This document shows, one piece after another, positions 13,156 through 31,571 of a DNA stretch of 64,000 bases. The notes under the pieces were generated by a model, which was given only the letters and a program-made list of their open reading frames with translations, made no database searches and was not told the origin of the DNA. The DNA is from an uncultured virus (IMG/VR IMGVR_UViG_3300032073_000002) (Duplodnaviria; Heunggongvirae; Uroviricota; Caudoviricetes). The stretch's first letter is position 1; each line of letters opens with the position of its first letter. Location: the IMG/VR virus record IMGVR_UViG_3300032073_000002. One strand, 5' to 3'. Made by a program: the position numbers and the translations under genes.

Positions 13156-13866
13156 TCAGTTCAGTATGGGGTTACCTATTTCATCTAATTCAAAAGTAAA
13201 TTCATTCTCATTGGGTGGTGTCCCTTGAGGGTCTCTTCTACTTGGGGAAGCTGAAATTTGATGTACTCTACAATTGAACGAAATTGAGTATCTTTCTTTG
13301 TCTGTAGGATTGGGTTCTACCATATGCATTGCACCACTAGGAAACATTATAAGTCTTCCAGTGACAGGATGATATCCTATACTCTCGTGCATTCTAGCAT
13401 TGGTAGGATGGTCTGCGACTACCTTTGGGTCTGTATTGATTAGTTGTAGGTCACCTTCATCACCGTCTCCATGTATATAAAAAACTCCACTATACCAACA
13501 ACCATTATGTAAATGTGGTGTATTCCATGCACCTTTATCATTTATATTTGCCCATGTATTGTCTATTTTAACTTGTGCATCGTCGGGATGAACTCTGAAG
13601 AATTGTTGTACTTCATCTCTCAATGCAGTTTCAATACATCTAACAATCTTTGCAAAGGCTGGATGTTGTTCTACCCCATCTTGAGACTGCCAACCAGTGT
13701 ACCTGTTTGATATTTGTCTACCCTTGGGGTCTCTTTTTCTCCATGCATCCATTTCTTTTTTAAGAGTCATTATATATTCTTTGGAGACAGCATCTTTACC
13801 ATACTTCTCTTGGTCTAATAAATTTCTTTCAAATATGAATGTTGGGAATGCTAATCTAATTGTCAT
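13156..13866 (-). CDS. Putative 2OG-Fe(II) oxygenase (TIGR02466-like phage family)
   Basis: WANIN..NTPHLH..SGVFY and FPSGAMHMVEPN...RYSISFN pattern (HxH...H...RxS). Confidence 0.8.
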   Translation of the reverse strand: MTIRLAFPTFIFERNLLDQEKYGKDAVSKEYIMTLKKEMDAWRKRDPKGRQISNRYTGWQSQDGVEQHPAFAKIVRCIETALRDEVQQFFRVHPDDAQVKIDNTWANINDKGAWNTPHLHNGCWYSGVFYIHGDGDEGDLQLINTDPKVVADHPTNARMHESIGYHPVTGRLIMFPSGAMHMVEPNPTDKERYSISFNCRVHQISASPSRRDPQGTPPNENEFTFELDEIGNPILN

Positions 13867-14761
13867 CTGTATCTCCGAATAAATCTAATTGTACTTCTGC
13901 ATTTTTTTCTACTAAATCGGGATTATGCATAGGACACTCGGGTGGTGGATTATCTTCTTTAAACATTCTTCCCTTCTCATTCCAATACTTAATTCTTCTA
14001 TAGGCACCAGCCATTCCTTCAATATGTCTTTTCTCTTCTCTAAGTTCGGGTGACCTATTCCATTCATCCATTGTTTTTAGTTTACCACCATCTTCACCCA
14101 CTCTATGGGTAGTTCTAACTGACCTGTTCTCTTGCCACGATTGATTGTCGTATGTTATATAGGATGCATTCCAAGTCTCTCTTCTGTAAGGGATGATTTG
14201 AACTAATGGTGTTCCAGCTTTGATTATAAAATCTTTATTTGTTTTAGGATAGAAGATAATTTGAGAGTTATCCATATTAACATTAAATGCATCTGTATCA
14301 ATCATACCTTGCCATGTTGCAAAATACTTATTTTGAAATAGAAATGGGTCTAAGTATAGACAAGAATAGCCTGGCGGAGTAATAATATTCCATGGTGCTT
14401 TCATTTTGAATGCATCTTTTGTTGGTGCATCTTCTTTAGATAAGTAAGTAAATTGATGACCTGCTTGTCCAGCTGGATGTGTTGGTGATGAAAGTCTGTC
14501 CTGTGGGTCTGTTCTTGAATTACTAGAATGTTCACTTACAAATACTTGCATGTCTTTCTTTGCACAAATTAACCATCCAGTCTTTAACCAGTCATCCATA
14601 GCAGGACATGACCTTATAGTCTGAGTTTTGTGACCACGAACATTCTCTTGAACCTTCATAGTCTTCCACCAATCGGGAACTACTTTCTTTGCTAGAACTG
14701 GTCTCCAATTCTCCGTGGTTTGTTTATCATAACATGTAAATTCAATCGTAGGCATCTTCAC
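13856..14761 (-). CDS. Hypothetical protein, possibly dUTPase-like beta fold, of a type often found beside phage 2OG oxygenases
   Basis: CPAMDDW..G, PWNIITPPGYSCLY, GMIDTD and IIKAGTPLVQIIPYRRE. Confidence 0.5.
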   Translation of the reverse strand: MKMPTIEFTCYDKQTTENWRPVLAKKVVPDWWKTMKVQENVRGHKTQTIRSCPAMDDWLKTGWLICAKKDMQVFVSEHSSNSRTDPQDRLSSPTHPAGQAGHQFTYLSKEDAPTKDAFKMKAPWNIITPPGYSCLYLDPFLFQNKYFATWQGMIDTDAFNVNMDNSQIIFYPKTNKDFIIKAGTPLVQIIPYRRETWNASYITYDNQSWQENRSVRTTHRVGEDGGKLKTMDEWNRSPELREEKRHIEGMAGAYRRIKYWNEKGRMFKEDNPPPECPMHNPDLVEKNAEVQLDLFGDTDDN

Positions 14762-15446
14762 CCCATAAAGTCTTTAGACTAATTTCATCTCCTCTTATAA
14801 CCAAAGAACGTCTATCCATATACCTTGCAGCTGGTTTTGGTGCATCTGCACCATGTGGTATTCTTCCATCAAATATTAATAATCTATTGGGTTTAAAATA
14901 CACTTCTGCAACTTGATGATTTTTAATATGGTCTTCTCTTCCATGTATTCCTTGTTGCATTTTATCATACATTCTTAAAGAACCACCCCAAGAATCATTC
15001 CAAAACTTATTTGGATAATATAAAAATGAAAGATTCCAATCATCTTGAGGCTCACAATCTGCATGTGTTGTTCCCTCTAGTCCTTGAGTCTGAGAATTCA
15101 AACCAAAGTATTGAAATCTCTCCCACATAAATCCGAAGTCTGTTTGTAACTTTCTATTGAACCAATTCATAAGATATGTATCTTTAGGTTCCATACCACG
15201 TTCTATTTCTTGGTTCTCACCTCTAAAGAATCCAACACCCCAAAAACTATGGTGTGGTAGTCCTGTAGGGCTGTCTGAGTTTACTTGATTAGTTTTTGCC
15301 CAATAAGAATTTCTAGTTATCCTATCATCAATACAATGATGCATCGTTGTAGATAAGTAATCATCTAAAACGTATACCTTTTGCAAAGGCATATCTTTGA
15401 TATGGAAAGGTTCTTTAATGAACTCTAACTCAACGTTAAACCCCAT
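14742..15446 (-). CDS. 2OG-Fe(II) oxygenase, prolyl-hydroxylase-like
   Basis: HAD (HxD), LYYPNKFWNDSWGGSL and FKPNRLLIFDGRIPHGA...RRSL motifs. Confidence 0.8.
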   Translation of the reverse strand: MGFNVELEFIKEPFHIKDMPLQKVYVLDDYLSTTMHHCIDDRITRNSYWAKTNQVNSDSPTGLPHHSFWGVGFFRGENQEIERGMEPKDTYLMNWFNRKLQTDFGFMWERFQYFGLNSQTQGLEGTTHADCEPQDDWNLSFLYYPNKFWNDSWGGSLRMYDKMQQGIHGREDHIKNHQVAEVYFKPNRLLIFDGRIPHGADAPKPAARYMDRRSLVIRGDEISLKTLWGEDAYD

Positions 15447-15449
15447 TGA

Positions 15450-16007
15450 CTACGGCCTAGTATCTTCTGGCGTATATGGACTAGGTAATTCACTCTGATA
15501 AGCGTCATAGTCTTTTAAGAAGTCTTCTCTAGTAGATTGGATTTCTTGAACTAGTTGGTCTAAAACAGAGTTAACTGCATCTGCAAATTCCATTGCTCTT
15601 CTAGCGTTATTTCTATGTGGATGATTCGAACCTTCTCTACCAGCATAAGTAACTTCAGATAGATTATCAAAGTTATACTGTTTACATTCTTGGTCGATGT
15701 AATCTTTAGTTGTACTATAAAGAGTATTGATAAATTGCATATTGAGACTGTGACCTATAGGTGGTTCACTATTCTCAATGTATTGTTCAATCATTTCACA
15801 CTCTTCTTTTGAGAGTGCAGTTTTTTGTTGTCGGTCAAAAGCTAGACCTTCTTCCCAGTTTAATATTTTAACTTCTATATCATCATAGATGATAACATCA
15901 AACTCAAAATCAAAAGCTGGTTTGTCTACAGAATCGTAATTGTATTCAAGTCCGTTAGGTTTACGGATGAATAAAGTTCCTTCACTGTCATATATAAATG
16001 CGTTCAT
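15450..16007 (-). CDS. Hypothetical protein resembling tail-fibre assembly chaperones
   Basis: C-terminal helical segment YIDQECKQYNFDNL...ARRAMEFADAV resembles phage fibre-chaperone C-termini; lies downstream of fibre genes. Confidence 0.4.
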   Translation of the reverse strand: MNAFIYDSEGTLFIRKPNGLEYNYDSVDKPAFDFEFDVIIYDDIEVKILNWEEGLAFDRQQKTALSKEECEMIEQYIENSEPPIGHSLNMQFINTLYSTTKDYIDQECKQYNFDNLSEVTYAGREGSNHPHRNNARRAMEFADAVNSVLDQLVQEIQSTREDFLKDYDAYQSELPSPYTPEDTRP

Positions 16008-16037
16008 AATTTAGTTCCTCGGTAATATTATAACATA

Positions 16038-17615
16038 CTAATCGCCAATTGGCAATCTTCTTTTCACTTTTAAAAAGTCTTCAAGATTATTTATGGTTGA
16101 ATAATCCATCCCTTTTACCCATGGGCCACCACGTGTATAATGTATACCACTGTAGTTGTACTTTTCTTCATGGTTATCATATCCTTCTACAAAGATATAA
16201 TGTTCGGGTATTTTAGAGATTTTATCTGTCCACTCAAATTGATGTAGCTGTTTTCCTGTCCAAGTGTTAACAACTTCGGGTGTTAGCTTCTTACAGTCTT
16301 CATGTCCATTATTGAATACCATCATACTAGACCAAAGCTTCTTAGGGTAATCTATATTAACTTCACCATCAAACTTTGTTTCATCATGTTTGTATTGTGG
16401 ATATTGTATACATGCAACAGCATCATTAGGGTTTAAGTAGTAAAACATTGGTAGTATACTTTTATTAAAGATGAAGTCATCATCAATAAAGATACTAAAT
16501 CCTTCGTAGTTCTCTAAGTAAGGTATTAGGAATCTACTGTATGTAAATTCAGTACTTTGATTTGCATACTCTCTAGTATACTCGGGAATCTTAGAAATGT
16601 CAAGTATTTTAACTTCGGGTTCCCATTTAACTTGGTCATGCATCCAACCTCTACCAAATCCGTTTTTAATACTTTCTAGGATTGCAAACTTAGAACACTT
16701 AGACAAATCTCCATGTCTACTATCATGTCCAATATAGATTGTTAGGGGTTTACCTTTTGCAAGTTCATAGACCTGTTTGTTAAATGCATGTACTTCATCT
16801 CTGAAATCTAAGTCCATTAATGCAGTATTATATTCAATACAACCATCCACATATGTGAATGAACAATGGTATTGCTTGTCTAATCTCTTTAACTTAGTAT
16901 ACCACATCTCTAATACGCTGTCAAGGCTTGTCGGTTCAACTTTCACAACATCAAAATTATCTATTACCATAATTTCCATATCGTTGTCTTGCATCTCTTC
17001 AAAGACACCCGAACGAATAGAGCCTGGGTGTATTCTAAATGTGTAAGTAGATTCAGTATTCATACCAGTGACACCATTATCTACAACATATCCTTGAATA
17101 GGAGCTCTTAAACCTTCCTCTTGGATACTTTGAATTAGCCAGTGTGCTTTTGCACCGTGATAATACATAGACAACAATGAACCCTCTGCATGTTGGTCTC
17201 TGTTTTCAACTGTGTCCCAATCGATTAATGTATCTATATCTACATATCCATTAGAATCTTTCATGTCCATACCTGCTACGCCTGGAATTACCTTTCTAGG
17301 TTTCTCTGCATAACCAACTGGTAAAAACTTGTGATAAGTTACTGACTCATTTCTTAATCCATTGAACCCACCAAATCTGTTTTCTTTTCTTAGATATTCA
17401 AAGTCTTTCCACTTTGCAATCTTTACTGGTGGTAGAATTTCTTTGAACATCCACTCAAGTATTTTATAGGTTTCTGAAGTTTTTGAATAGCCTGGTTCTA
17501 TATTAAATGCACCAAGATGAAAATTACCAATGGCCTGTCTTTCTTGTGAGGTTATCTTAGGGTCATAAGGTTTTATTAATTCTTTTGCTTGTTCTAGGGT
17601 TTCAATTTTCTGCAT
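16038..17615 (-). CDS. Two-domain protein: ParB/Srx-like N-terminus plus GT-A glycosyltransferase (CDI/GT8-related)
   Basis: C-terminus has IYIGHDSR, STEFTYSRFLIPYL, FIDDDF (DxD), YPKKLWSSMM and HYTRGGPW. N-terminus has LIQSIQEEGLRAPI...IHPGSIR. Confidence 0.8.
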   Translation of the reverse strand: MQKIETLEQAKELIKPYDPKITSQERQAIGNFHLGAFNIEPGYSKTSETYKILEWMFKEILPPVKIAKWKDFEYLRKENRFGGFNGLRNESVTYHKFLPVGYAEKPRKVIPGVAGMDMKDSNGYVDIDTLIDWDTVENRDQHAEGSLLSMYYHGAKAHWLIQSIQEEGLRAPIQGYVVDNGVTGMNTESTYTFRIHPGSIRSGVFEEMQDNDMEIMVIDNFDVVKVEPTSLDSVLEMWYTKLKRLDKQYHCSFTYVDGCIEYNTALMDLDFRDEVHAFNKQVYELAKGKPLTIYIGHDSRHGDLSKCSKFAILESIKNGFGRGWMHDQVKWEPEVKILDISKIPEYTREYANQSTEFTYSRFLIPYLENYEGFSIFIDDDFIFNKSILPMFYYLNPNDAVACIQYPQYKHDETKFDGEVNIDYPKKLWSSMMVFNNGHEDCKKLTPEVVNTWTGKQLHQFEWTDKISKIPEHYIFVEGYDNHEEKYNYSGIHYTRGGPWVKGMDYSTINNLEDFLKVKRRLPIGD

Positions 17616-17652: not shown

Positions 17653-17677
17653 AAAAAAAACCCCTCTTTCGAGGGGT
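17653..17677 (-). terminator. Rho-independent terminator after the first repeat-protein pair
   Basis: Minus strand CCCCUC-GAAA-GAGGGG hairpin followed by 8 U. Confidence 0.85.
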
Positions 17678-17701
17678 CTTTGTTCACTGTCGGGTAGGTT
17701 C

Positions 17702-19324
17702 CTATGATGTGATTGGTGTTGCAGGCCATTGTTGTGATACCACTCCATCCCATCTTGCTTCGGGTGTTCTCCCTTGTCTTGAATAGGTGAATGGACTTCT
17801 ATGCTGATAAGTCGTTGGTGTCTGACCTGTTCTTTGATATGTAAACGGACTTCTATGGTTATAAGTCGTTGGTGTCTGACCTTGTCTAGCATACGTAAAC
17901 GGTGACCTGTGAGAATATGTTACAGTTGTTTGACCAGTTCTTTGATACGTAAACGGTGTCTGTGCATTCCTTATGTTTGGTTCTTGAGCAGCTGCAATAT
18001 AAGGATACGGATTCTGTTTGTTTCTTATATTGGGTTCTTGTGCATTTACAGGATTCCTATAAGTGAACGGTGACCTATGTTGATACGTAGAAGGTTGACG
18101 TGCATTACTAGGATTCTGATAAGTAAACGGTGACCTATGACTATACGTAAACGGTGTCTGATTGTTTCTAATATTAGGTTCTTGTTGACTTCTAATATTA
18201 GGTTGTTGTGCATCTCTAATATTAGGTTCCTGTGCAGATACAGGACTTCTATATGTAAATGGTGACCTATGACTATACGTAAACGGTGTTTGTGCGTTTC
18301 TAATATTAGGTTCTTGTTGTGACCTTATATTTGGTTCTTGTTGGTTTCTAATATTAGGCTCTTGTGCATTACTAGGATTCTGATAAGTAAACGGTGACCT
18401 ATGACTATAGGTAAACGCTGCCTGATTGTTTCTAATATTAGGTTCTTGTTGTGACCTAATGTTCGGTTGTTGTATGTTTCTAATATTAGGTTCTTGTCCA
18501 TTACTAGGATTCTGATAAGTAAACGGTGACCTATGACTATACGTAAACGGTGTCTGATTGTTTCTTATGTTTGGTTCTTGTTGTGACCTAATGTTCGGTT
18601 CTTGTTGGTTTCTAATATTAGGCTCTTGTCCATTTACAGGATTTCTGTATGTAAACGGAGACCTATGGTTATAAGTAAACGCTGCTTGTGCATTTCTAAT
18701 ATTAGGTTCTTGTTGACTTCTAATATTAGGTTCTTGTGCCGAACGTATATTAGGTTCTTGTCCATTTACAGGACTTCTATATGTAAATGGAGACCTGTGG
18801 TTATAAGTAAACGGTGTTTGACCCTGTCTTGCATATGTAAATGGTGACCTATGAGAATACGTTAACGGTGACCTATGTGAATACGTTAAAGGTGACCTAT
18901 GTTGATATGAACTCGGTTGTCTTGCTTCTCTTATGTTAGGTTGTTGTGCAGATACAGGACTTCTATATGTAAATGGTGACCTATGATTATATGTAAACGG
19001 AGACCTATGGTTATAAGTAAACGGTTGTCTTGCATTAGCAATGTAAGGTACTCTGTATGTAAACGGATTCCTTGCATTATTAGGTTGTCTTGCGTTAGTA
19101 GGGTTCCTATATGTAAATGGTGCTTGGAATGTGAACGGTTGTTGACCATTCGCTGGATACCTAGCATTATACGTAAATGGTGCTTGGAATGTGAACGGTT
19201 GCTGTGCATTCGCTGGATACCTTGCACTATACGTAAATGGTTGTTGAACAATCGAAGGCGTCTGTACATCAACGGACACTTGTCCGTTTTTGATAGTCGG
19301 TTGTTGTCTTTGACCTATTGGCAT
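17702..19324 (-). CDS. Pro-rich modular repeat protein B (540 aa); predicted antiparallel partner of protein A
   Basis: Residues 7-518 parse entirely into 69 modules of 6, 8 or 10 aa (RSPFTY, RNPVNA, QEPNIRxx, RSPxTYxH, QNPYPYIAxA, RSPFTYxRxG). Confidence 0.85.
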   Translation of the reverse strand: MPIGQRQQPTIKNGQVSVDVQTPSIVQQPFTYSARYPANAQQPFTFQAPFTYNARYPANGQQPFTFQAPFTYRNPTNARQPNNARNPFTYRVPYIANARQPFTYNHRSPFTYNHRSPFTYRSPVSAQQPNIREARQPSSYQHRSPLTYSHRSPLTYSHRSPFTYARQGQTPFTYNHRSPFTYRSPVNGQEPNIRSAQEPNIRSQQEPNIRNAQAAFTYNHRSPFTYRNPVNGQEPNIRNQQEPNIRSQQEPNIRNNQTPFTYSHRSPFTYQNPSNGQEPNIRNIQQPNIRSQQEPNIRNNQAAFTYSHRSPFTYQNPSNAQEPNIRNQQEPNIRSQQEPNIRNAQTPFTYSHRSPFTYRSPVSAQEPNIRDAQQPNIRSQQEPNIRNNQTPFTYSHRSPFTYQNPSNARQPSTYQHRSPFTYRNPVNAQEPNIRNKQNPYPYIAAAQEPNIRNAQTPFTYQRTGQTTVTYSHRSPFTYARQGQTPTTYNHRSPFTYQRTGQTPTTYQHRSPFTYSRQGRTPEARWDGVVSQQWPATPITS

Positions 19325-19362
19325 TTTAGATTGTTCCTGTTATATTAATATTTCTCATTTGC

Positions 19363-21120
19363 TTACGGCTCCATGACATTAGGTGGATTACCACCACCAA
19401 AAGTGAAGTAGTATGTAAACGGACTTCTGTGTTGGTACGTTATGGGTTGTTGTGCAATACTTGGGGCCCTAGAGTTTGCACCAGTTCTTGCGTTTGCAAT
19501 GTAAGGCACTCTATATGTAAATGGGTTTCTTGCACTATTTGGTTGTCTTGCATTCGCTATATAAGGTTGTCTATATGTGAATGGGTTCCTTGCATCGTTA
19601 GGTTGCCTTGCATTAGTAGGGTTCCTGTACGTAAATGGTGCTTGGAATGTAAAAGGTTGCTGTGCATTCGCTGGATACCTTGCATCATACGTGAATGGAC
19701 TCCTTGCATCTCTAATGTTAGGTTGTTGAATTGCCCTAATGTTAGGTTCCTGTGCGTTTACTGGATTCCTATATGTAAACGGAGACCTATGGTTATAAGT
19801 AAACGCTGCCTGATTATTTCTAATATTAGGTTCTTGTTGTGACCTAATATTTGGTTCTTGTTGTGACCTAATATTTGGTTCTTGTGCATTTGCAATATAA
19901 GGATACGGTTGTTGTGCAGAACGAATATTAGGTTCTTGAGCAGACACAGGGTTCCTATATGTGAACGGTGACCTATGTTGATACGTAAATGGAGACCTAT
20001 GATTATATGTCAAAGGACTTCTATGTTGGTATGTACTAGGTTGTCTTGCTTCTCTTATGTTAGGCTCTTGTGCAGATACAGGACTTCTATATGTAAATGG
20101 AGACCTATGAGAATATTCCAAAGGCGACCTATGTGAATATGTTAACGGTGACCTATGTTGATAAGTTGCAGGCTGTCTTGCATCTCTAATATTAGGTTCT
20201 TGTCCATTCACTGGATTTCTGTAAGTGAATGGAGACCTATGTTGATAGGTAAATGGTGACCTGTGAGAATATGTCAAAGGACTTCTATGTTGGTATGTAC
20301 TAGGTTGTCTTGCTTCTCTAATATTAGGTTCTTGTCCATTCACTGGATTTCTGTACTCGAATGGAGACCTATGATTATATGTCAAAGGCGACCTATGTGA
20401 ATATGTTAACGGTGACCTATGTTGATACGTAGAAGGTTGTCTTGCATCTCTAATAAAAGGTGCTTGTCCATTCACTGGATTCCTATATGTAAACGGTGAC
20501 CTATGTTGATACGTAAATGGAGACCTATGACTATACGTTAAAGGACTTCTATGTTGATAAGTTGCAGGCTGTCTTGCATCTCTAATATTAGGTTCTTGTC
20601 CATTCACTGGATTTCTGTAAGTGAACGGTGTCTGTGCATTCCTTATGTTTGGTTCTTGTGCATTTACAGGGTTTTGATATGTAAACGGTGACCTATGTTG
20701 ATAAGTCGTTGGTGTTTGACCTTGTCTAGCATATGTAAATGGACTTCTATGTTGGTATGTACTAGGTTGTCTTGCTTGTGCTATATAAGGATACGGCTGT
20801 TGTTGGTCTCTTATATTAGGTTCTTGTGCATTTGCAATATAAGGATACGGATTCTGTTGGTTCCTTATGTTAGGCTCTTGTGCATTTGCAATATAAGGAT
20901 ACGGATTCTGTTTGTTTCTTATATTGGGTTCTTGTCCATTTGCAATGTATGGATAAGGAACTTGAGTCGCAGTCTGCCCCGATGCGTTATTCCATCCTGT
21001 AGGGGTTTTAATGTAGATTTGGTCAACTGCTTTCCATGTGGAACTAGCTGTTTTTACCCATGCACCTTGAGTTGAATTCCAACCTGCTGGTGTTTTGACC
21101 TTTTGTGAACCTGTTGCCAT
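19363..21120 (-). CDS. Pro-rich modular repeat protein A (585 aa) with N-terminal Trp-rich adaptor-like domain
   Basis: N-terminal KVKTPAGW..AWVKTASSTWKAVDQIYIKTPTGW, then 69 modules in residues 53-564; AATAAATA promoter-like element at 21145-21152. Confidence 0.85.
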   Translation of the reverse strand: MATGSQKVKTPAGWNSTQGAWVKTASSTWKAVDQIYIKTPTGWNNASGQTATQVPYPYIANGQEPNIRNKQNPYPYIANAQEPNIRNQQNPYPYIANAQEPNIRDQQQPYPYIAQARQPSTYQHRSPFTYARQGQTPTTYQHRSPFTYQNPVNAQEPNIRNAQTPFTYRNPVNGQEPNIRDARQPATYQHRSPLTYSHRSPFTYQHRSPFTYRNPVNGQAPFIRDARQPSTYQHRSPLTYSHRSPLTYNHRSPFEYRNPVNGQEPNIREARQPSTYQHRSPLTYSHRSPFTYQHRSPFTYRNPVNGQEPNIRDARQPATYQHRSPLTYSHRSPLEYSHRSPFTYRSPVSAQEPNIREARQPSTYQHRSPLTYNHRSPFTYQHRSPFTYRNPVSAQEPNIRSAQQPYPYIANAQEPNIRSQQEPNIRSQQEPNIRNNQAAFTYNHRSPFTYRNPVNAQEPNIRAIQQPNIRDARSPFTYDARYPANAQQPFTFQAPFTYRNPTNARQPNDARNPFTYRQPYIANARQPNSARNPFTYRVPYIANARTGANSRAPSIAQQPITYQHRSPFTYYFTFGGGNPPNVMEP

Positions 21121-21171: not shown

Positions 21172-23787
21172 TTAGGAGTAAAGAATCCACATATCACCAA
21201 CCGCTCCATCTGAACCGCCAGGTGCAGAAGTTGATTGGTAAACATTTCTTGCAGTTCCACCACTGTTAGATGCATTCGTTATTGTTAATGCACCTGTGGA
21301 TACCGCTGCTGGTGTTACTGATAATGCACCAGTTGAAGCACCTGTTGCAGTAGTTGTTCCGAATGCAAAACTTGATGCACTATCGTCCCAACCCATAAAC
21401 ACGTTACTTTCATCACCTCTCTCAATGACAATACCTGCGTCTCCCGATGGAGAACCAGTTGTCCCTGTTCCTAATTCAATCAACGAATCTTCGATAGTTG
21501 TGTTAGTTGAACTATTTGTTACTGTTGAACCATTTACTGTTAAGTTACCTGTAACTACAAGGTTACCACTTGCAGATACGTCTGCAAATTGAACATCACT
21601 AGTTGTTGCAACTGCCTGACCGATACTAACTTGACCCGAACTGATAGCAACACCAGTACCATTAGAGAAATGTGCTCTTGTCTCAGCTGCACTTGGCCCT
21701 GTATATGTAATAACACCAGTTGAATTGTTATATGCAAGTGAACCATCTCCACCTGCGTCTGTTACTGAAACTTTTCCTCTGATAGTTGCATCTGTAATTG
21801 CAAGGTCGACTGCACCGTCACCAGCATCATCATATGTTGCAGTGATGTTTGTGTGTGAACCGTTAGTTGCTAATTGAGTTCCAACTGTGTCTTGAATGTT
21901 TTCGTAAGGTACTCTAATTTCTAGTGTTCCAGCTGCATCATCATATGTTGTTGCAACGTTTACACCAGCAGTAATTAAAGCGTTAACTCTATCGTCAACT
22001 CTTTCATCTGTATAGTATAAGTTACCACTCTCACCAATGTGAGATGTGTTTAAAGTAACTGAAGCACCTAAGTCTACTGACTGTGAGTTAATTGTTACAC
22101 TGTCATTTGCAAGTTTACTGTTTGCAATTGAACCTGCTAACATGGCATTAGTAACACCAAGTGCTTTAACTCTTAATGCATCTGAATTTGTTTCGATTGA
22201 ACTATCGTCTACTCCGACTGATAGAACACCACTTGAATGTGCAAGACCGTCACCTGCTACTGAAGCATCTAGGTTTAAAGTAACTGCACCACTTGAACCA
22301 CCACCCGATAGACCGTCTCCAGCTGTAACACCTGTGATGTCCGCTGCGTTTCCGTCAATTGTAAGTGTTCCAGCTGCATCATCATATGTTGCAGTTATGT
22401 TTGTTCCACCAACAATCAATGAACCGACTCTGTCATCCACTCTTTCATTTGTAAAGTAAAGGTTACCACTCTCTGTGATTCCACCAGTGTTTAGTGTGAT
22501 GTTTGCTGTACCGTCAAATGAAACACCCGAGATAGTTCTTGCACTTGCAAGTGCAGTAGCAGTTCCTGCTAATCCTGTTGTATCTTGGTTAAGTGTTCCG
22601 ACTGCAAAGTCTAAAGTGTTATCTGCATCTTGATACGTAACTGTAAGACCACTTTCTGTATTAGAAGTGACCATATTACCAACTGTATCTGAAATAAATT
22701 CTGCGTCTACTGCAAGGTCAATAGTTCCATCTGCATCTTGATATGTTGCAGTAATACCTGTTTCAGTATTTGAACTGAACATTGCTCCAGCAATATCTTG
22801 AACTCTTTCTGTAGTGTGATATAAATTAGTTGAGCCTTCGTTTAAGTCATCTGAATCAAATGCACCCATATTGACTGCAACATCATTTGCATTAACTGTA
22901 ATACCAGTTCCAGCACCAATGTTTAATGTTGCAGCTCCACTTGTTGCACCACCAGTTAAACCCGAACCAGCAACTACTGATTCGATGTCACCAGCATCGT
23001 TTGTGAAACTGAATACACCAGTTGTGCTGTTGTATGATATATCACCAGTTGCTGATAGAGCAGCTCTTGCTCTTGCATCTGTAAAGTAAAGGTTACTTGA
23101 ACCTTCTGTAATTTCGTCTGAATTGTCTTTTGTTAGAATACTTGCATCAACATAAGCTTTAATTGATTGTTGTGATGCAGCGTGAGATGCACTGTTCGAA
23201 GACATATCGTCTTCGTCTTTAAGGTCGATTGCAATGTCATCTGCATTAACTGTGATACCTGTTCCAGCAATAGCATTTACTGTTACATCACCACTTGTTC
23301 CGCCACCTGTTAGACCTGCTCCAGCAACAACACTTGTTATGTCTCCAACTGGAACTGTTGCAACTTGAGTATCAACATATGCTTTAATTGATTGTTGAGT
23401 AGCTGCATGTACGGCACTATCTGATGCCATATTGTCTTCGTCTTTAAAGTTGATTGCAATATCGTCTGCATTTACAGTAATACCTGTACCAGCACCAATG
23501 TTTAATGTTGCATCTCCACTAGTTGCAGTACCAGTTAAACCAAGTCCTGCGTTAACTCCTGTGATATCACCAACATTACCTGTAATTGTAAGTGTCCCAG
23601 CTGAATCATCATATGATAATCCAATACCAGCACCTGCTGTTAGTAAGGTATTTGCAACGTGGTCATCGATGACCTCTATAGCTGCAGTACCAAATGCACC
23701 TGCTACTAAGTCACCCGAACTATCTAGAACATCATTTGTTCCTACGGATAGACCGTTCTTTAGTATAAAATTCTTTTCCCCTGCCAT
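21172..23787 (-). CDS. Tail fibre protein (871 aa, G/T/D-rich repeats)
   Basis: Repeats GDITxVxAGxGLTG, DEDxMxSxSAxHAAxQQSIKAYVD, EGSxNLYxT and TYDDAAGTL; C-terminal STSAPGGSDGAVGDMW motif. Confidence 0.8.
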   Translation of the reverse strand: MAGEKNFILKNGLSVGTNDVLDSSGDLVAGAFGTAAIEVIDDHVANTLLTAGAGIGLSYDDSAGTLTITGNVGDITGVNAGLGLTGTATSGDATLNIGAGTGITVNADDIAINFKDEDNMASDSAVHAATQQSIKAYVDTQVATVPVGDITSVVAGAGLTGGGTSGDVTVNAIAGTGITVNADDIAIDLKDEDDMSSNSASHAASQQSIKAYVDASILTKDNSDEITEGSSNLYFTDARARAALSATGDISYNSTTGVFSFTNDAGDIESVVAGSGLTGGATSGAATLNIGAGTGITVNANDVAVNMGAFDSDDLNEGSTNLYHTTERVQDIAGAMFSSNTETGITATYQDADGTIDLAVDAEFISDTVGNMVTSNTESGLTVTYQDADNTLDFAVGTLNQDTTGLAGTATALASARTISGVSFDGTANITLNTGGITESGNLYFTNERVDDRVGSLIVGGTNITATYDDAAGTLTIDGNAADITGVTAGDGLSGGGSSGAVTLNLDASVAGDGLAHSSGVLSVGVDDSSIETNSDALRVKALGVTNAMLAGSIANSKLANDSVTINSQSVDLGASVTLNTSHIGESGNLYYTDERVDDRVNALITAGVNVATTYDDAAGTLEIRVPYENIQDTVGTQLATNGSHTNITATYDDAGDGAVDLAITDATIRGKVSVTDAGGDGSLAYNNSTGVITYTGPSAAETRAHFSNGTGVAISSGQVSIGQAVATTSDVQFADVSASGNLVVTGNLTVNGSTVTNSSTNTTIEDSLIELGTGTTGSPSGDAGIVIERGDESNVFMGWDDSASSFAFGTTTATGASTGALSVTPAAVSTGALTITNASNSGGTARNVYQSTSAPGGSDGAVGDMWILYS

Positions 23788-28656: not shown

Positions 28657-29829
28657 TTAAGCACCAAACTCACCCATTGGGAACTGAGCAGTTGGTACAG
28701 ATTGGTGTGTTTTCCTTGCAGTTCCACTATCATTTACATAAGCTTCTTCTACCTTTCTTAGAGTTCCATTGTCATTAATGAATACACCTTTAACTTTTGC
28801 ATTTCTAGGTATGACTCTTTGATGTGAGTAAGTAACTTGATAGGTAAATGGACTTTGGTGTTGATATGATATCTGAGCTCCAGCATTATAGAAGAAAGGT
28901 GTTTGTGTATTTCTAATATTAGGTTGTTGTCCTTGTACTGAATTTTGATATGTGAACGGACTTCTATGTGCATAGGTAAATGGACTTCTTCCATCTGCAA
29001 TATATGGATAAGATACTTGCTTGTTTCTAATATTAGGTTCAGTTGCAGTTGCAATGTAAGGATAAGGTACATCGCGATTACCAATAGCTGGTTGTTGACC
29101 TGTTGTTGCATACGTAAATGGACTTCTATGTTGATAGATACTTGGTAATTGACCAGTTCTTTGATACGTAAATGGTGTTTGACTTTCTTTTACAACATTT
29201 GTTTGTGCATTACTAGGGTTTCTATATGTAAATGGAGACCTATGGTTGTATGAAACTTGTCTTATTGCTTGTCTATTATATGTAAACGGACTTCTTGTCT
29301 CGTAGGTAAACGGTGACCTATGAGCATATGTCGCAGGTTGTCTTGCATCACGTATGTTAGGTTCTCTTCCCTCTACAGGACTTCTATATGTGAGTGGACT
29401 TTGATGTTGATACGTAGACGGTGACCTGTGACTATATGTTAAAGGACTTCTATGTTGGTATGTATTAGGTTGTCTTGCCTCTCTTATGTTTGGTTCCTGT
29501 GCATTCACTGGACTTCTATAAGTGAACGGACTTCTATGTGCATAGGTAAATGGTGACCTGTGACTATATGTTAAAGGACTTCTATGTTGGTATGTACTAG
29601 GTTGTCTTGCTTCTCTAATATTAGGCTGTCTTGCATTTACAGGATTTCTATATGTAGTAGGTGTCTGACCCTGTGTGTCATAAGTTGCAGGCTGTCTTGC
29701 ATTTCTAATATTTGGTTCTTGTGCATTTGCAATATAGGGATAGGCGTTTTGTCTATTTGCTATAGAAGGCATCCTATATGAAACTATAGTAGGTTGTTGT
29801 AAACTATATGGTTGTTGAGCAATGGCCAT
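28657..29829 (-). CDS. Pro-rich modular repeat protein D (390 aa) with C-terminal adaptor-like domain; predicted partner of protein C
   Basis: Residues 5-336 parse into 43 modules; C-terminal KVKGVFINDNGTLRKVEEAYVNDSGTARK; start overlaps the stop of C. Confidence 0.85.
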   Translation of the reverse strand: MAIAQQPYSLQQPTIVSYRMPSIANRQNAYPYIANAQEPNIRNARQPATYDTQGQTPTTYRNPVNARQPNIREARQPSTYQHRSPLTYSHRSPFTYAHRSPFTYRSPVNAQEPNIREARQPNTYQHRSPLTYSHRSPSTYQHQSPLTYRSPVEGREPNIRDARQPATYAHRSPFTYETRSPFTYNRQAIRQVSYNHRSPFTYRNPSNAQTNVVKESQTPFTYQRTGQLPSIYQHRSPFTYATTGQQPAIGNRDVPYPYIATATEPNIRNKQVSYPYIADGRSPFTYAHRSPFTYQNSVQGQQPNIRNTQTPFFYNAGAQISYQHQSPFTYQVTYSHQRVIPRNAKVKGVFINDNGTLRKVEEAYVNDSGTARKTHQSVPTAQFPMGEFGA

Positions 29830-31571
29830 TATTGTAAATCTCCACCACCCTTAGACATCGACAATTGAATCAATTGACTCGTTGGGTTTGTTGTATAGAT
29901 AGTAGGATTACTTCCAACATTTCCATTCACAACTTTTAATTGTATTGAAACACCTGTAGAACGAAGATAACCTAAAGAACCTTGGTTACTACTGCCAGAA
30001 CTTGCAGACCACTTAAACCCTACCGCTGTTGAACTATTATCATTTTGTTCTCCATCCCAAATAAAATAAAATTGGTTTTTAACTTTTGCACCAGTTTCGT
30101 TAGCTGAATCATTTGGAAATTCAGCTGAACCACCAAAATTACTGTCATCTATATCAGCATTAGAATTCCATTTAGCAGATATCTCTATACCATCTCCATC
30201 TTGACTATCACCTTGGAAGTCTCCATAGAAGTTAATATAGTCTTCATAAACTGGGCCCATTGCTGCGCTATCGACTGCATACCATTTTGCTTTAACTGAA
30301 TATGCATTGGTACCACTTTCTTGCCAATCGAATCGCATTAAGCAACTGCCACTTGTTGCATATGCTGAAGAATGACTTCTTGTTGTTTCCCAAGTTCTAT
30401 TTGTTGTTGTGAGGCCTGACTGAGATTGACCCGCGTTAATATGAATCGCTGCACTGTTGCCTGGGCCCCAAGTAGTGTTGCCTGCATTGTTTGGTGCATC
30501 CTCTCCATCCACTCCATCATATATGGCGGGTTGTTGGGCAATTATTGGAGTTGATGAACTTGTAGTTGCTGGTGTCTGTACATTATAAGTCGTTGGTGTT
30601 TGACCTTGTCTTGCGTATGTAAATGGACTTTGATGTTGATAGGTAAACGGAGTCTGAGAATTTGCACTATAGGGATAAGGATTTTGTTTATTAACAGGGT
30701 TCTGATAAGTAAACGGTGACCTATAATTATAAGTAAACGCTGCTTGTGCATTTCTAATATTAGGTTCCTGTTGGTTTCTAATATTAGGCTCTTGTGCATT
30801 CTTAATAGTAGGTTGTTGTGCAGATACAGGATTCCTATATGTAAACGGTGACCTATGTTGATACGTAAACGCTGTTTGACTGCTTCTAATATTAGGTTCT
30901 TGCTGATTTCTTATATTAGGTTCTTGTTGGTTTCTAATATTTGGTTCTTGAGCAGACACAGGGTTCCTATAAGTGAACGGTGACCTGTAGTTATAAGTAA
31001 ACGGTGTTTGACTGTTTCTAATATTAGGTTCTTGTGCATTGACTTGATTCGATTCTTGTCCAGCTGCAATATAAGGATACGGTTGTTGTGTATCTCTTAT
31101 GTTCGGTTCTTGTGCATTTACAGGATTCTGATAAGTAAAGGGACTAGGGTGTTGGTAGAACCCAGGCTGTCTAGCATTTGCAATATAAGGATAAGGACTT
31201 TGTAAAGCCCTTCCATTTGGTTGTTGACCAGCTGCAATGTATGGATAAGGATTCTGAAAATTATATGTTGCTGGTTGCAGTCCTTGTCTTGCGTATGTAA
31301 ATGGACTTTGATGCTGATAGATTGTAGGTGTCTGACCCTGTCTTGTGTAAGTAAAGGGTTGTTGTGCATTCCTTATGTTTGGTTCTTGGCCAGATACAGG
31401 AGTATTGTATATGAACGGAGACCTGTATTGATACGTTGAGGGTTGACGAGATTCAGCTGTATAGATAGACTGTGTCTGTCTAATGTTTGGTTCTTGACCA
31501 TTTACTGGAACTCGAGCATTGTACGGTTGCTGAATTTCCGTTTCTATGTTTACAAATATTTCTTCAGACAT
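29829..31571 (-). CDS. Pro-rich modular repeat protein C (580 aa) with a C-terminal globular, possibly receptor-binding domain
   Basis: Residues 14-345 parse into 43 modules; about 230 non-repetitive S/G/N/W-rich residues follow. Confidence 0.85.
   Translation of the reverse strand: MSEEIFVNIETEIQQPYNARVPVNGQEPNIRQTQSIYTAESRQPSTYQYRSPFIYNTPVSGQEPNIRNAQQPFTYTRQGQTPTIYQHQSPFTYARQGLQPATYNFQNPYPYIAAGQQPNGRALQSPYPYIANARQPGFYQHPSPFTYQNPVNAQEPNIRDTQQPYPYIAAGQESNQVNAQEPNIRNSQTPFTYNYRSPFTYRNPVSAQEPNIRNQQEPNIRNQQEPNIRSSQTAFTYQHRSPFTYRNPVSAQQPTIKNAQEPNIRNQQEPNIRNAQAAFTYNYRSPFTYQNPVNKQNPYPYSANSQTPFTYQHQSPFTYARQGQTPTTYNVQTPATTSSSTPIIAQQPAIYDGVDGEDAPNNAGNTTWGPGNSAAIHINAGQSQSGLTTTNRTWETTRSHSSAYATSGSCLMRFDWQESGTNAYSVKAKWYAVDSAAMGPVYEDYINFYGDFQGDSQDGDGIEISAKWNSNADIDDSNFGGSAEFPNDSANETGAKVKNQFYFIWDGEQNDNSSTAVGFKWSASSGSSNQGSLGYLRSTGVSIQLKVVNGNVGSNPTIYTTNPTSQLIQLSMSKGGGDLQ

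Follow-up and report, generated by a model that had tools for sequence, protein, structure and literature searches.

Mirror-ordered repeat chains encoded by paired genes of a T4-like marine myophage suggest an antiparallel strand-pairing code

We analyzed a 64,000-nt window from the uncultured virus IMGVR_UViG_3300032073_000002, which carries two gene pairs, A/B and C/D, whose four products are all composed of proline-punctuated units of 6, 8 or 10 residues. Within each pair the two chains are arranged as mirror images of each other, and residues of one chain covary with residues of the other. On sequence grounds, A/B and C/D are most probably the two strands of a long antiparallel two-stranded β-ribbon that forms a fibre shaft on the virion of a T4-like marine myophage. 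Residue-level covariation and an anti-diagonal inter-chain stripe both exist, and make cross-strand pairing the best reading. A preliminary description of this DNA had noted that given module junctions of one chain face given junctions of the other, and had explained this by physical pairing. The junction observation is confirmed here and the pairing strongly supported, while the contacts proposed for it are corrected; our analysis adds a register, two residues below the Pro–Pro alignment, and a contact list.

Mirrored prolines in the two gene pairs

Gene A (17702-19324, minus strand) encodes the 540-aa 'return' strand, with a repeat zone at residues 9-521 (nt ~17762-19300). Gene B (19363-21120, minus strand) encodes the 585-aa 'outbound' strand, which begins with a conserved Trp/Lys-rich base domain (residues 1-50; 20971-21120, minus strand) and whose residues 55-567 (nt ~19420-20958) mirror A. 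At i+j=576, 64 of the 70 prolines of A lie opposite a proline of B, ungapped from A9 to A521, and the anchor spacings are all even. The next-best register matched 42 of A's prolines, and the best parallel A/B alignment 38. It is extremely unlikely that each protein instead folds on itself or homodimerises: both module types do occur in each chain, and fused relatives are intramolecular hairpins, but the best self registers matched only 35/70 prolines for A and 41/78 for B, against 64 for A with B. The second pair consists of gene C (28657-29829, minus strand; 390 aa, return strand), residues 7-311 of which mirror D, and gene D (29829-31571, minus strand; 580 aa, outbound strand), with repeat residues ~44-348; 33 of 42 prolines matched at i+j=355.

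The mirror recurred among relatives, for which 126 distinct gene pairs were gathered from 233 sources, plus fused single-chain relatives. The matched fraction of cognate A/B pairs had a median of 0.89 and was at least 0.75 in 63 of 73 distinct complete architectures, compared with a median of 0.47 for non-cognate combinations (at least 0.75 in 239/5036). Return chains across these 73 architectures ranged from 190 to 562 aa. The register offset (K minus the length of A) was 36 or 37 in 63 of them; at the end where B has its base domain, the register is fixed relative to the C-terminus of A. Gene order was reversed (A then B) in 21 of 81 complete A/B pairs, and the mirror persisted. About 280-320 nt separate B and A in some phages (L011:6599-6916, L036:7764-8079 and L057:12209-12492), a gap in which a small additional gene might fit.

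In many phages, D and C form a single self-mirrored chain with an irregular middle (L021:2347-3942, L025:2696-4162, L061, L063 and L134-L151); 15 of the 50 listed entries share one anchored register. These fused D-C chains are natural giant hairpins. A single open reading frame (ORF) with a B-like start and an A-like end (L183:777-2165) was seen once, on a 3.1 kb contig. It is possibly a mis-join and was not used as evidence, as a mis-join of A and B would give the same offset.

The junctions on which the preliminary description had built were re-examined at this alignment. Its statement that H-H junctions always face N-N junctions was nearly exact for A/B, in which [HY]-[RQP]SP lies opposite x-Q[EQ]P[NT]I[RK] in 33 of 34 cases (the sole exception to the H-RSP facing rule being NG-QAPFIR), but it applied to only 11 of 15 cases in C/D. 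Among the 28 H8-to-H anchors from A101 to A521, 13 were opposite a true N8>N8 junction and 15 opposite a 6-mer>N8 junction. The facing of xA-RQP junctions with QTP/QAA was borne out without exception (xA-RQP[SAGN]xY opposite Q[TA][PA]FTY, 8/8 in A/B and 5/5 in C/D). Degenerate modules were said to face degenerate modules, and the three C/D pairs named do exist as written. With the same Pro anchor, the degeneracy of the -2..+3 hexamers correlated in C/D (rho 0.47, n=42, permutation p 0.001) but hardly in A/B (rho 0.18, n=70, p 0.07); with the module pairing used originally, rho was 0.23 in C/D (n=41, p 0.08) and 0.09 in A/B (p 0.23).

A block in which the chains swap roles had been counted among the compensatory changes. 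The block exists, with EARQP at A137 opposite NNQAA at B439, but the chains had been named the wrong way round, A=NNQAA with B=EARQP being what the main repeat region shows (e.g., A303/B273). Independent residue compensation was not borne out for the swap, as the junction letters moved with whole cassettes. The B-type cassette inside A (A115-164; 18833-18982, minus strand) has 85% DNA identity to B339-388 and at best 71% to other parts of A, and the A-type cassette of B that faces it (B413-462; 19735-19884, minus strand) has 83% identity to A189-238 and 63% elsewhere in B. Because identity to the other gene is well above that within the own gene, we regard the swap block as a whole-cassette exchange. 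Junction patterns alone are weak evidence for residue-level compensation, because they follow from module type and the swap is a cassette copy.

Inter-chain coupling and a probable pairing code

The preliminary description had anticipated an anti-diagonal stripe of inter-chain coupling, and a single such stripe was found, two residues off the Pro–Pro alignment (i+j=574 in A/B). The sample comprised windows around facing prolines in well-mirrored runs (120 of 147 pairs and fusions; 4053 anchors), and a pseudolikelihood coupling model was fitted to 2241 unique Pro-anchored word pairs. Mean coupling by p+q was 1.24 at -2, 0.71 at 0 and 0.46 at -4, and never exceeded 0.12 at odd sums. Of the two flanks, that at -4 comes from the proline face and that at 0 mainly from the aromatic one. 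This pattern was repeated in A/B (n=1859; 90/93 pairs), split C/D (n=418; 23/28) and fused D-C (n=216; 17/49) sets, which are homologous and not fully independent, and it was gone when A/B partners were shuffled (0.06 or less in size). With the class and length of the four flanking segments fixed (14 strata, 1752/1927 words), the excess information was still highest at -2 (0.179 bits) and 0 (0.166 bits), with a permutation standard deviation of 0.0035 per cell. In the H8>H8/N8>N8 stratum, which is the H-H/N-N class of the preliminary description, the top signal was +1 versus -3, with F:A 97, F:G 34 and L:Q 58 of 351. It should be noted that z and p values for coupling and co-substitution are too optimistic because of kinship, tandem copying and the selection for proline mirroring.

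In a separate test, collinear orthologues from 93 of the 103 complete pairs were linked by a minimum spanning tree with 61 edges, and co-substitution was followed over 11,939 columns containing 637 changes. The test was stratified for the class of site and for local divergence, and it superseded an unstratified count that was inflated at many offsets. Partners changed together at offset -2 with an odds ratio (OR) of 4.0 (141 observed versus 83.5 expected; 6.2 on the aromatic face), at offset 0 with an OR of 4.4 on the aromatic face only, and at offset -4 with an OR of 6.5 on the proline face only (14 events versus 8.4 expected).

A history without physical pairing, in which the mirror and the covariation stem from shared cassettes (duplication or A-B gene conversion) or from a third periodic partner, is highly improbable. 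A and B do exchange cassettes, and the data are non-independent. However, same-strand copying gives parallel rather than reversed order, orthologues show single-residue co-substitutions along one anti-diagonal accompanied by face-specific diagonals, and the mirror survives both the 21/81 reversals of gene order and chain fusion. DNA inversion was likewise rejected as the source of the mirror, as A and B share no inverted DNA match.

The lateral register most consistent with these data would be A(i):B(574-i) and C(i):D(353-i). When nine registers were compared (570-578 for A/B), 574 and 353 had the fewest pair types (48 and 59) and zero Arg/His/Lys opposite Glu/Asp; common facing pairs were P:R, P:Q, T:N, Y:R, F:A, H:N and S:E. 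The coupling, the register comparison and the co-substitutions led us to reject 573 (Arg-Glu, Ile-Tyr) and 576 (Pro-Pro) as the lateral register.

The clearest compensating rule is one of size, with Phe opposite Ala/Gly but Leu/Thr/Ser opposite Gln/Lys/Arg/Asn. At the sites in the window, Phe was opposite A/G/S in 40/43 (A/B) and 21/21 (C/D) cases, and a Gln/Lys/Arg/Asn partner was opposite a non-Phe residue in 16/17 and 6/6. One site across five tandem 44-aa units alternates F:A, L:Q, F:I, L:Q, F:A. Over 1532 unique anchors, F/Y was found opposite A/G/S in 967/1038 and opposite other residues in 245/494. The 'aromatic-aliphatic' contacts suggested previously are partly correct, as Phe over Ala/Gly and Tyr over Val/Ala, but not as Tyr over Ile.

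The chemistry first proposed, in which Arg/His-Glu salt bridges and Tyr/Phe-Ile contacts hold a register of 572-573, is very unlikely. A/B does contain 29 Arg-Glu and 43 Ile-Tyr pairs at 573 and 28 His-Glu pairs at 572, and Glu is somewhat commoner opposite His than opposite Tyr/Phe (Glu at -1 with a partner His, OR 2.0, p 3e-4, without kinship correction). Yet there was no coupling at sum -3 (0.03; co-substitution OR 1.06) and nothing at sum -4 on the aromatic face (OR 0.90; coupling -0.11 to -0.03 and -0.28), and an odd register would place the prolines of one chain at hydrogen-bonded positions. The Arg-Glu contact was not supported: coupling of Arg(-2) with Glu(-1) was -0.15 (-0.06 to 0.06 in three subsets), and Glu versus non-acidic residues at -1 was unrelated to a partner Arg/Lys (OR 0.76, p 0.35), Glu and Gln swapping freely opposite Arg. 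The His-Glu contact is doubtful, with a coupling of 0.02 for His(-3)/Glu(-1) and -0.34 to -0.13 in three subsets. Compensatory cross-strand changes stand as residue-level covariation along an anti-diagonal stripe, but not with salt-bridge chemistry or on the argument from the swap. Charge-swap mutants, the test originally suggested, would be the wrong one because Arg-Glu is uncoupled and His-Glu doubtful.

A proposed two-stranded ribbon

In the model that we infer from sequence, which extends to physical binding, ribbon geometry, position on the virion and oligomeric state, B and D would start at a conserved base and extend to a variable tip, and A and C would return from there, A(i) pairing with B(574-i) over ~513 residues. 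If fully extended at 3.3 Å per residue, the shafts would be ~170 nm (A/B) and ~100 nm (C/D) long. The prolines would all fall at positions of the same parity that are not hydrogen-bonded, facing Gln/Arg, where they would also keep the sheet from growing at its outer edges. The code would be carried by the other face: Phe/Tyr over small Ala/Gly/Ser, with the aromatic becoming Leu/Thr/Ser/Ala where the partner is large (Gln, Lys, Arg, Asn), and the further pairs Tyr:Arg, Ser:Glu/Gln and His:Asn. Matched proline spacings of 6, 8 or 10 residues and this size code would together set register and fibre length.

A twisted two-stranded antiparallel ribbon is favored because there is one lateral register, coupling is between residues of the same face, and the two faces have opposite diagonals. 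Couplings at the single lateral register were confined to even sums, with a weak exception at offset -1. Proline has no NH and is hence allowed at non-hydrogen-bonded sites. The prolines here would occupy such sites, because the diagonal of their face, at the lateral sum minus 2, matches that of model hairpins, in which the non-hydrogen-bonded 2-9 diagonal adjoins the 3-10 hydrogen-bonded site, two below the lateral sum (PMC10096425). The hydrogen-bonded face would take the opposite diagonal. Tyr over a hydrogen-bonded Gly is used to set strand register in designed barrels (10.1101/2020.10.22.346965).

Several observations weigh against the two-stranded ribbon. Mirroring of C/D is looser (median 0.62, at least 0.75 in 4/19), 10 of the 73 A/B architectures fall below 0.75, and four pairs are out of register by a whole unit, with two registers 18-88 apart (L005:2326-5612, L007:8912-12066, L019:9222-11771 and L026:148-2167); these mismatches may be assembly errors or tolerated bulges. 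A plain ribbon leaves unexplained the weak co-substitution at offset -1 (OR 1.9, z 2.7) and the proline-face coupling of 0.2-0.4 at sum 0, and on the proline face the direct register is itself weak (OR 1.6, z 1.7). Common descent and tandem duplication link the samples, which were chosen for good proline mirroring. AlphaFold2 models of a fused D-C relative were poor (mean predicted local distance difference test, pLDDT, 38.5 alone and 36.2 with 29 sequences), the model made from the sequence alone having no strands in the repeat zone. The alignment-based model has strands at 20-36/414-430 and 69-83/367-381, both summing to 450, the proline register minus 2 (pLDDT ~36), although this pairing was deduced from the strand extents, not from listed contacts, and relies on the same covariation. 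Fold searches with this low-confidence model returned nothing at E <= 0.001 in the PDB or a viral library. An alignment-based complex prediction of B1-170 with A411-540 scored 0.00 twice, with a mark of 0.32, while its controls did not fold, and speaks neither for nor against pairing.

A possible, though less likely, arrangement keeps the antiparallel pairing but has the A/B ribbons coil in twos or threes to give a needle of four or six strands, in which the sum-0 aromatic stripe would be the contact with a second ribbon and His could bind metal. Phage fibres are usually trimers, and in the tip of T4 gp37 three hairpins coil into a six-stranded needle. On the aromatic face, the stripe at sum 0 comes close to the direct one in strength (OR 4.4; coupling 1.02 versus 1.59), the gene upstream of B resembles an ordinary phage fibre/structural protein, and a two-stranded ribbon 170 nm long would be floppy on its own. 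On the other hand, prolines every 6-10 residues at one parity would remove the outer-edge NH groups needed by a second hydrogen-bonded neighbor, and His is single, without H-x-H pairs: it is present in 589 of 1135 aromatic 8-mers and replaced by Tyr, Ala, Asn or Phe in 482. The needle is compatible with the two-stranded ribbon at the level of the pairing code and is a live alternative.

Among known systems, the T4 gp37 needle (D10-D11, the tip of the long tail fibre) is likewise an elongated fibre part of a T4-type phage, and its chain path runs out and back as in the fused D-C relatives. According to PMC6957217, gp37 is a homotrimer with seven His-bound iron atoms, D11 spans ~128 residues, and an aromatic-on-Gly contact joins strands (F970 on G921); the A/B code would likewise put an aromatic on Gly/Ala. 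Unlike gp37, the strands here come from two different genes, are 190-560 residues each and proline-punctuated, and have a single replaceable His per module rather than paired iron-binding His along the shaft. No Pfam or PHROG match to gp37/gp12-type fibre domains was found in A-D. In the tandem β-zipper of fibronectin-binding proteins, an unfolded strand adds to folded host F1 modules over a few units. As there, repeats of one chain would pair antiparallel, unit by unit, with those of another protein, but both partners would be bare strands of one virus that covary over ~65 units. The paired zone of A/B had no folded-domain match, both chains consisting of the same low-complexity units of 6-10 residues. 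In the streptococcal antigen I/II stalk, two repeat regions of one chain, one of them Pro-rich, pack antiparallel as an α-helix and a polyproline helix, whereas here there would be two β-strands from two genes. The contacts themselves (lateral i:j, diagonal i:j+/-2, aromatic on Gly/Ala, cation-π) are textbook for model β-hairpins (PMC10096425; 10.1101/2020.10.22.346965), but would be reused here as a mirror-ordered code between two gene products over hundreds of residues. Chain-like fibres of Pseudomonas phage A1002 also contain more than one protein, with globular dimers on a rope protein and β-sheet augmentation; mirror-complementary strands do not figure in the available part of that source (PMC13730344). 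In its working, the system may be likened to a giant β-hairpin split into two genes.

Genomic setting and implications

The window is the structural module of a T4-like myophage, with family matches to scaffold, portal, sheath, terminase, baseplate wedge, gp5 and tail-tube assembly proteins. Matches to gp6, gp8, gp48-like and fibre-associated families place A-D among tail/baseplate genes. Relatives of the window's genes are on viral and metagenome contigs, several with a marine label. The GTDB scan yielded one locus from 48 candidates (L232, on a 121 kb contig of a Sphingobacteriales bin), which is probably a phage contig in the bin, with no firm host evidence. The cultured-phage collection gave just two weak, low-identity matches, ESM Atlas matches were unnamed viral clusters only, and a PDB sequence search with the alignment of the B N-terminus had no match at E < 0.2. 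No Pfam or PHROG family matched the repeat zones of A-D, apart from a Cementoin (PF10511) score on B. This candidate was rejected as compositional, the whole-protein score being a sum over repeats with 0 significant single stretches.

At the base, A ends with a conserved W-D-G...W-P tail that would lie at the foot of the fibre, and C with a base domain that has a weak match to PHROG 13729 at residues 344-377. Directly upstream of B, an 871-aa structural/fibre gene (21172-23787, minus strand; PHROG 697) encodes a candidate proximal partner of the A/B fibre. Its product ends with a G-D-x-W motif, and B 1-50 and C 342-390 carry similar V-K...Y-V/I-K/N strands; we take these to resemble the joint motif of phage fibres. 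Directly after A is a terminator-like hairpin with a T tail (17656-17681, minus strand; consensus match only). Downstream of it, several non-structural-looking genes lie within the structural module (13156-17615): one matches glycosyltransferase family 8 weakly (16038-17615), and two (13156-13866 and 14742-15446) are, by eye, presumably 2OG-Fe(II) oxygenase-like.

The tips are more variable. After its repeat zone, D has a non-repeat C-terminal domain of ~230 aa, without a Pfam match, which would be the distal tip. In B, the tip beyond the mirrored zone is short in the window, where the protein ends after a Gly run, but exceeds 40 residues in 32 of 81 relatives and is often Hint-like. Many B relatives have the Gly run followed by a domain from Cys-Phe to near His-Asn (e.g., L033:10001-11617, L107:3689-5380 and L192:4582-5784), with weak Hint/intein Pfam matches below the curated cut-offs; others have a different tip domain of 145-160 aa. 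The fibre tip may be self-processed in some phages.

Our literature search, with subscription papers and preprint supplements outside its scope, returned no description of this mirror system or of strand contacts used as a repeated, mirror-ordered code between two long gene products, and the repeat words were absent from the text searched. We consider it rather probable that A and B constitute a natural protein 'duplex', two separately encoded chains that pair head to tail along hundreds of residues according to a small amino-acid code, read position by position and made up of proline spacing and large/small complementarity. If so, the rule would suffice to write a partner for any new module string, and sequence complementarity would set fibre length and register much as in a nucleic-acid stem. 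The specificity of β-strand pairing cannot normally be read from sequence. Here, a widespread marine phage family would provide natural strand pairs by the thousand, in which the register is fixed and the allowed partners are few, so that cross-strand recognition would become directly testable with short peptides, and it would offer a length-programmable heterodimeric nanofibre. For the phages themselves, the system would add a fibre architecture to the T4-like group, built from two genes that evolve under a mirror constraint through matched insertions, cassette swaps and fusions.

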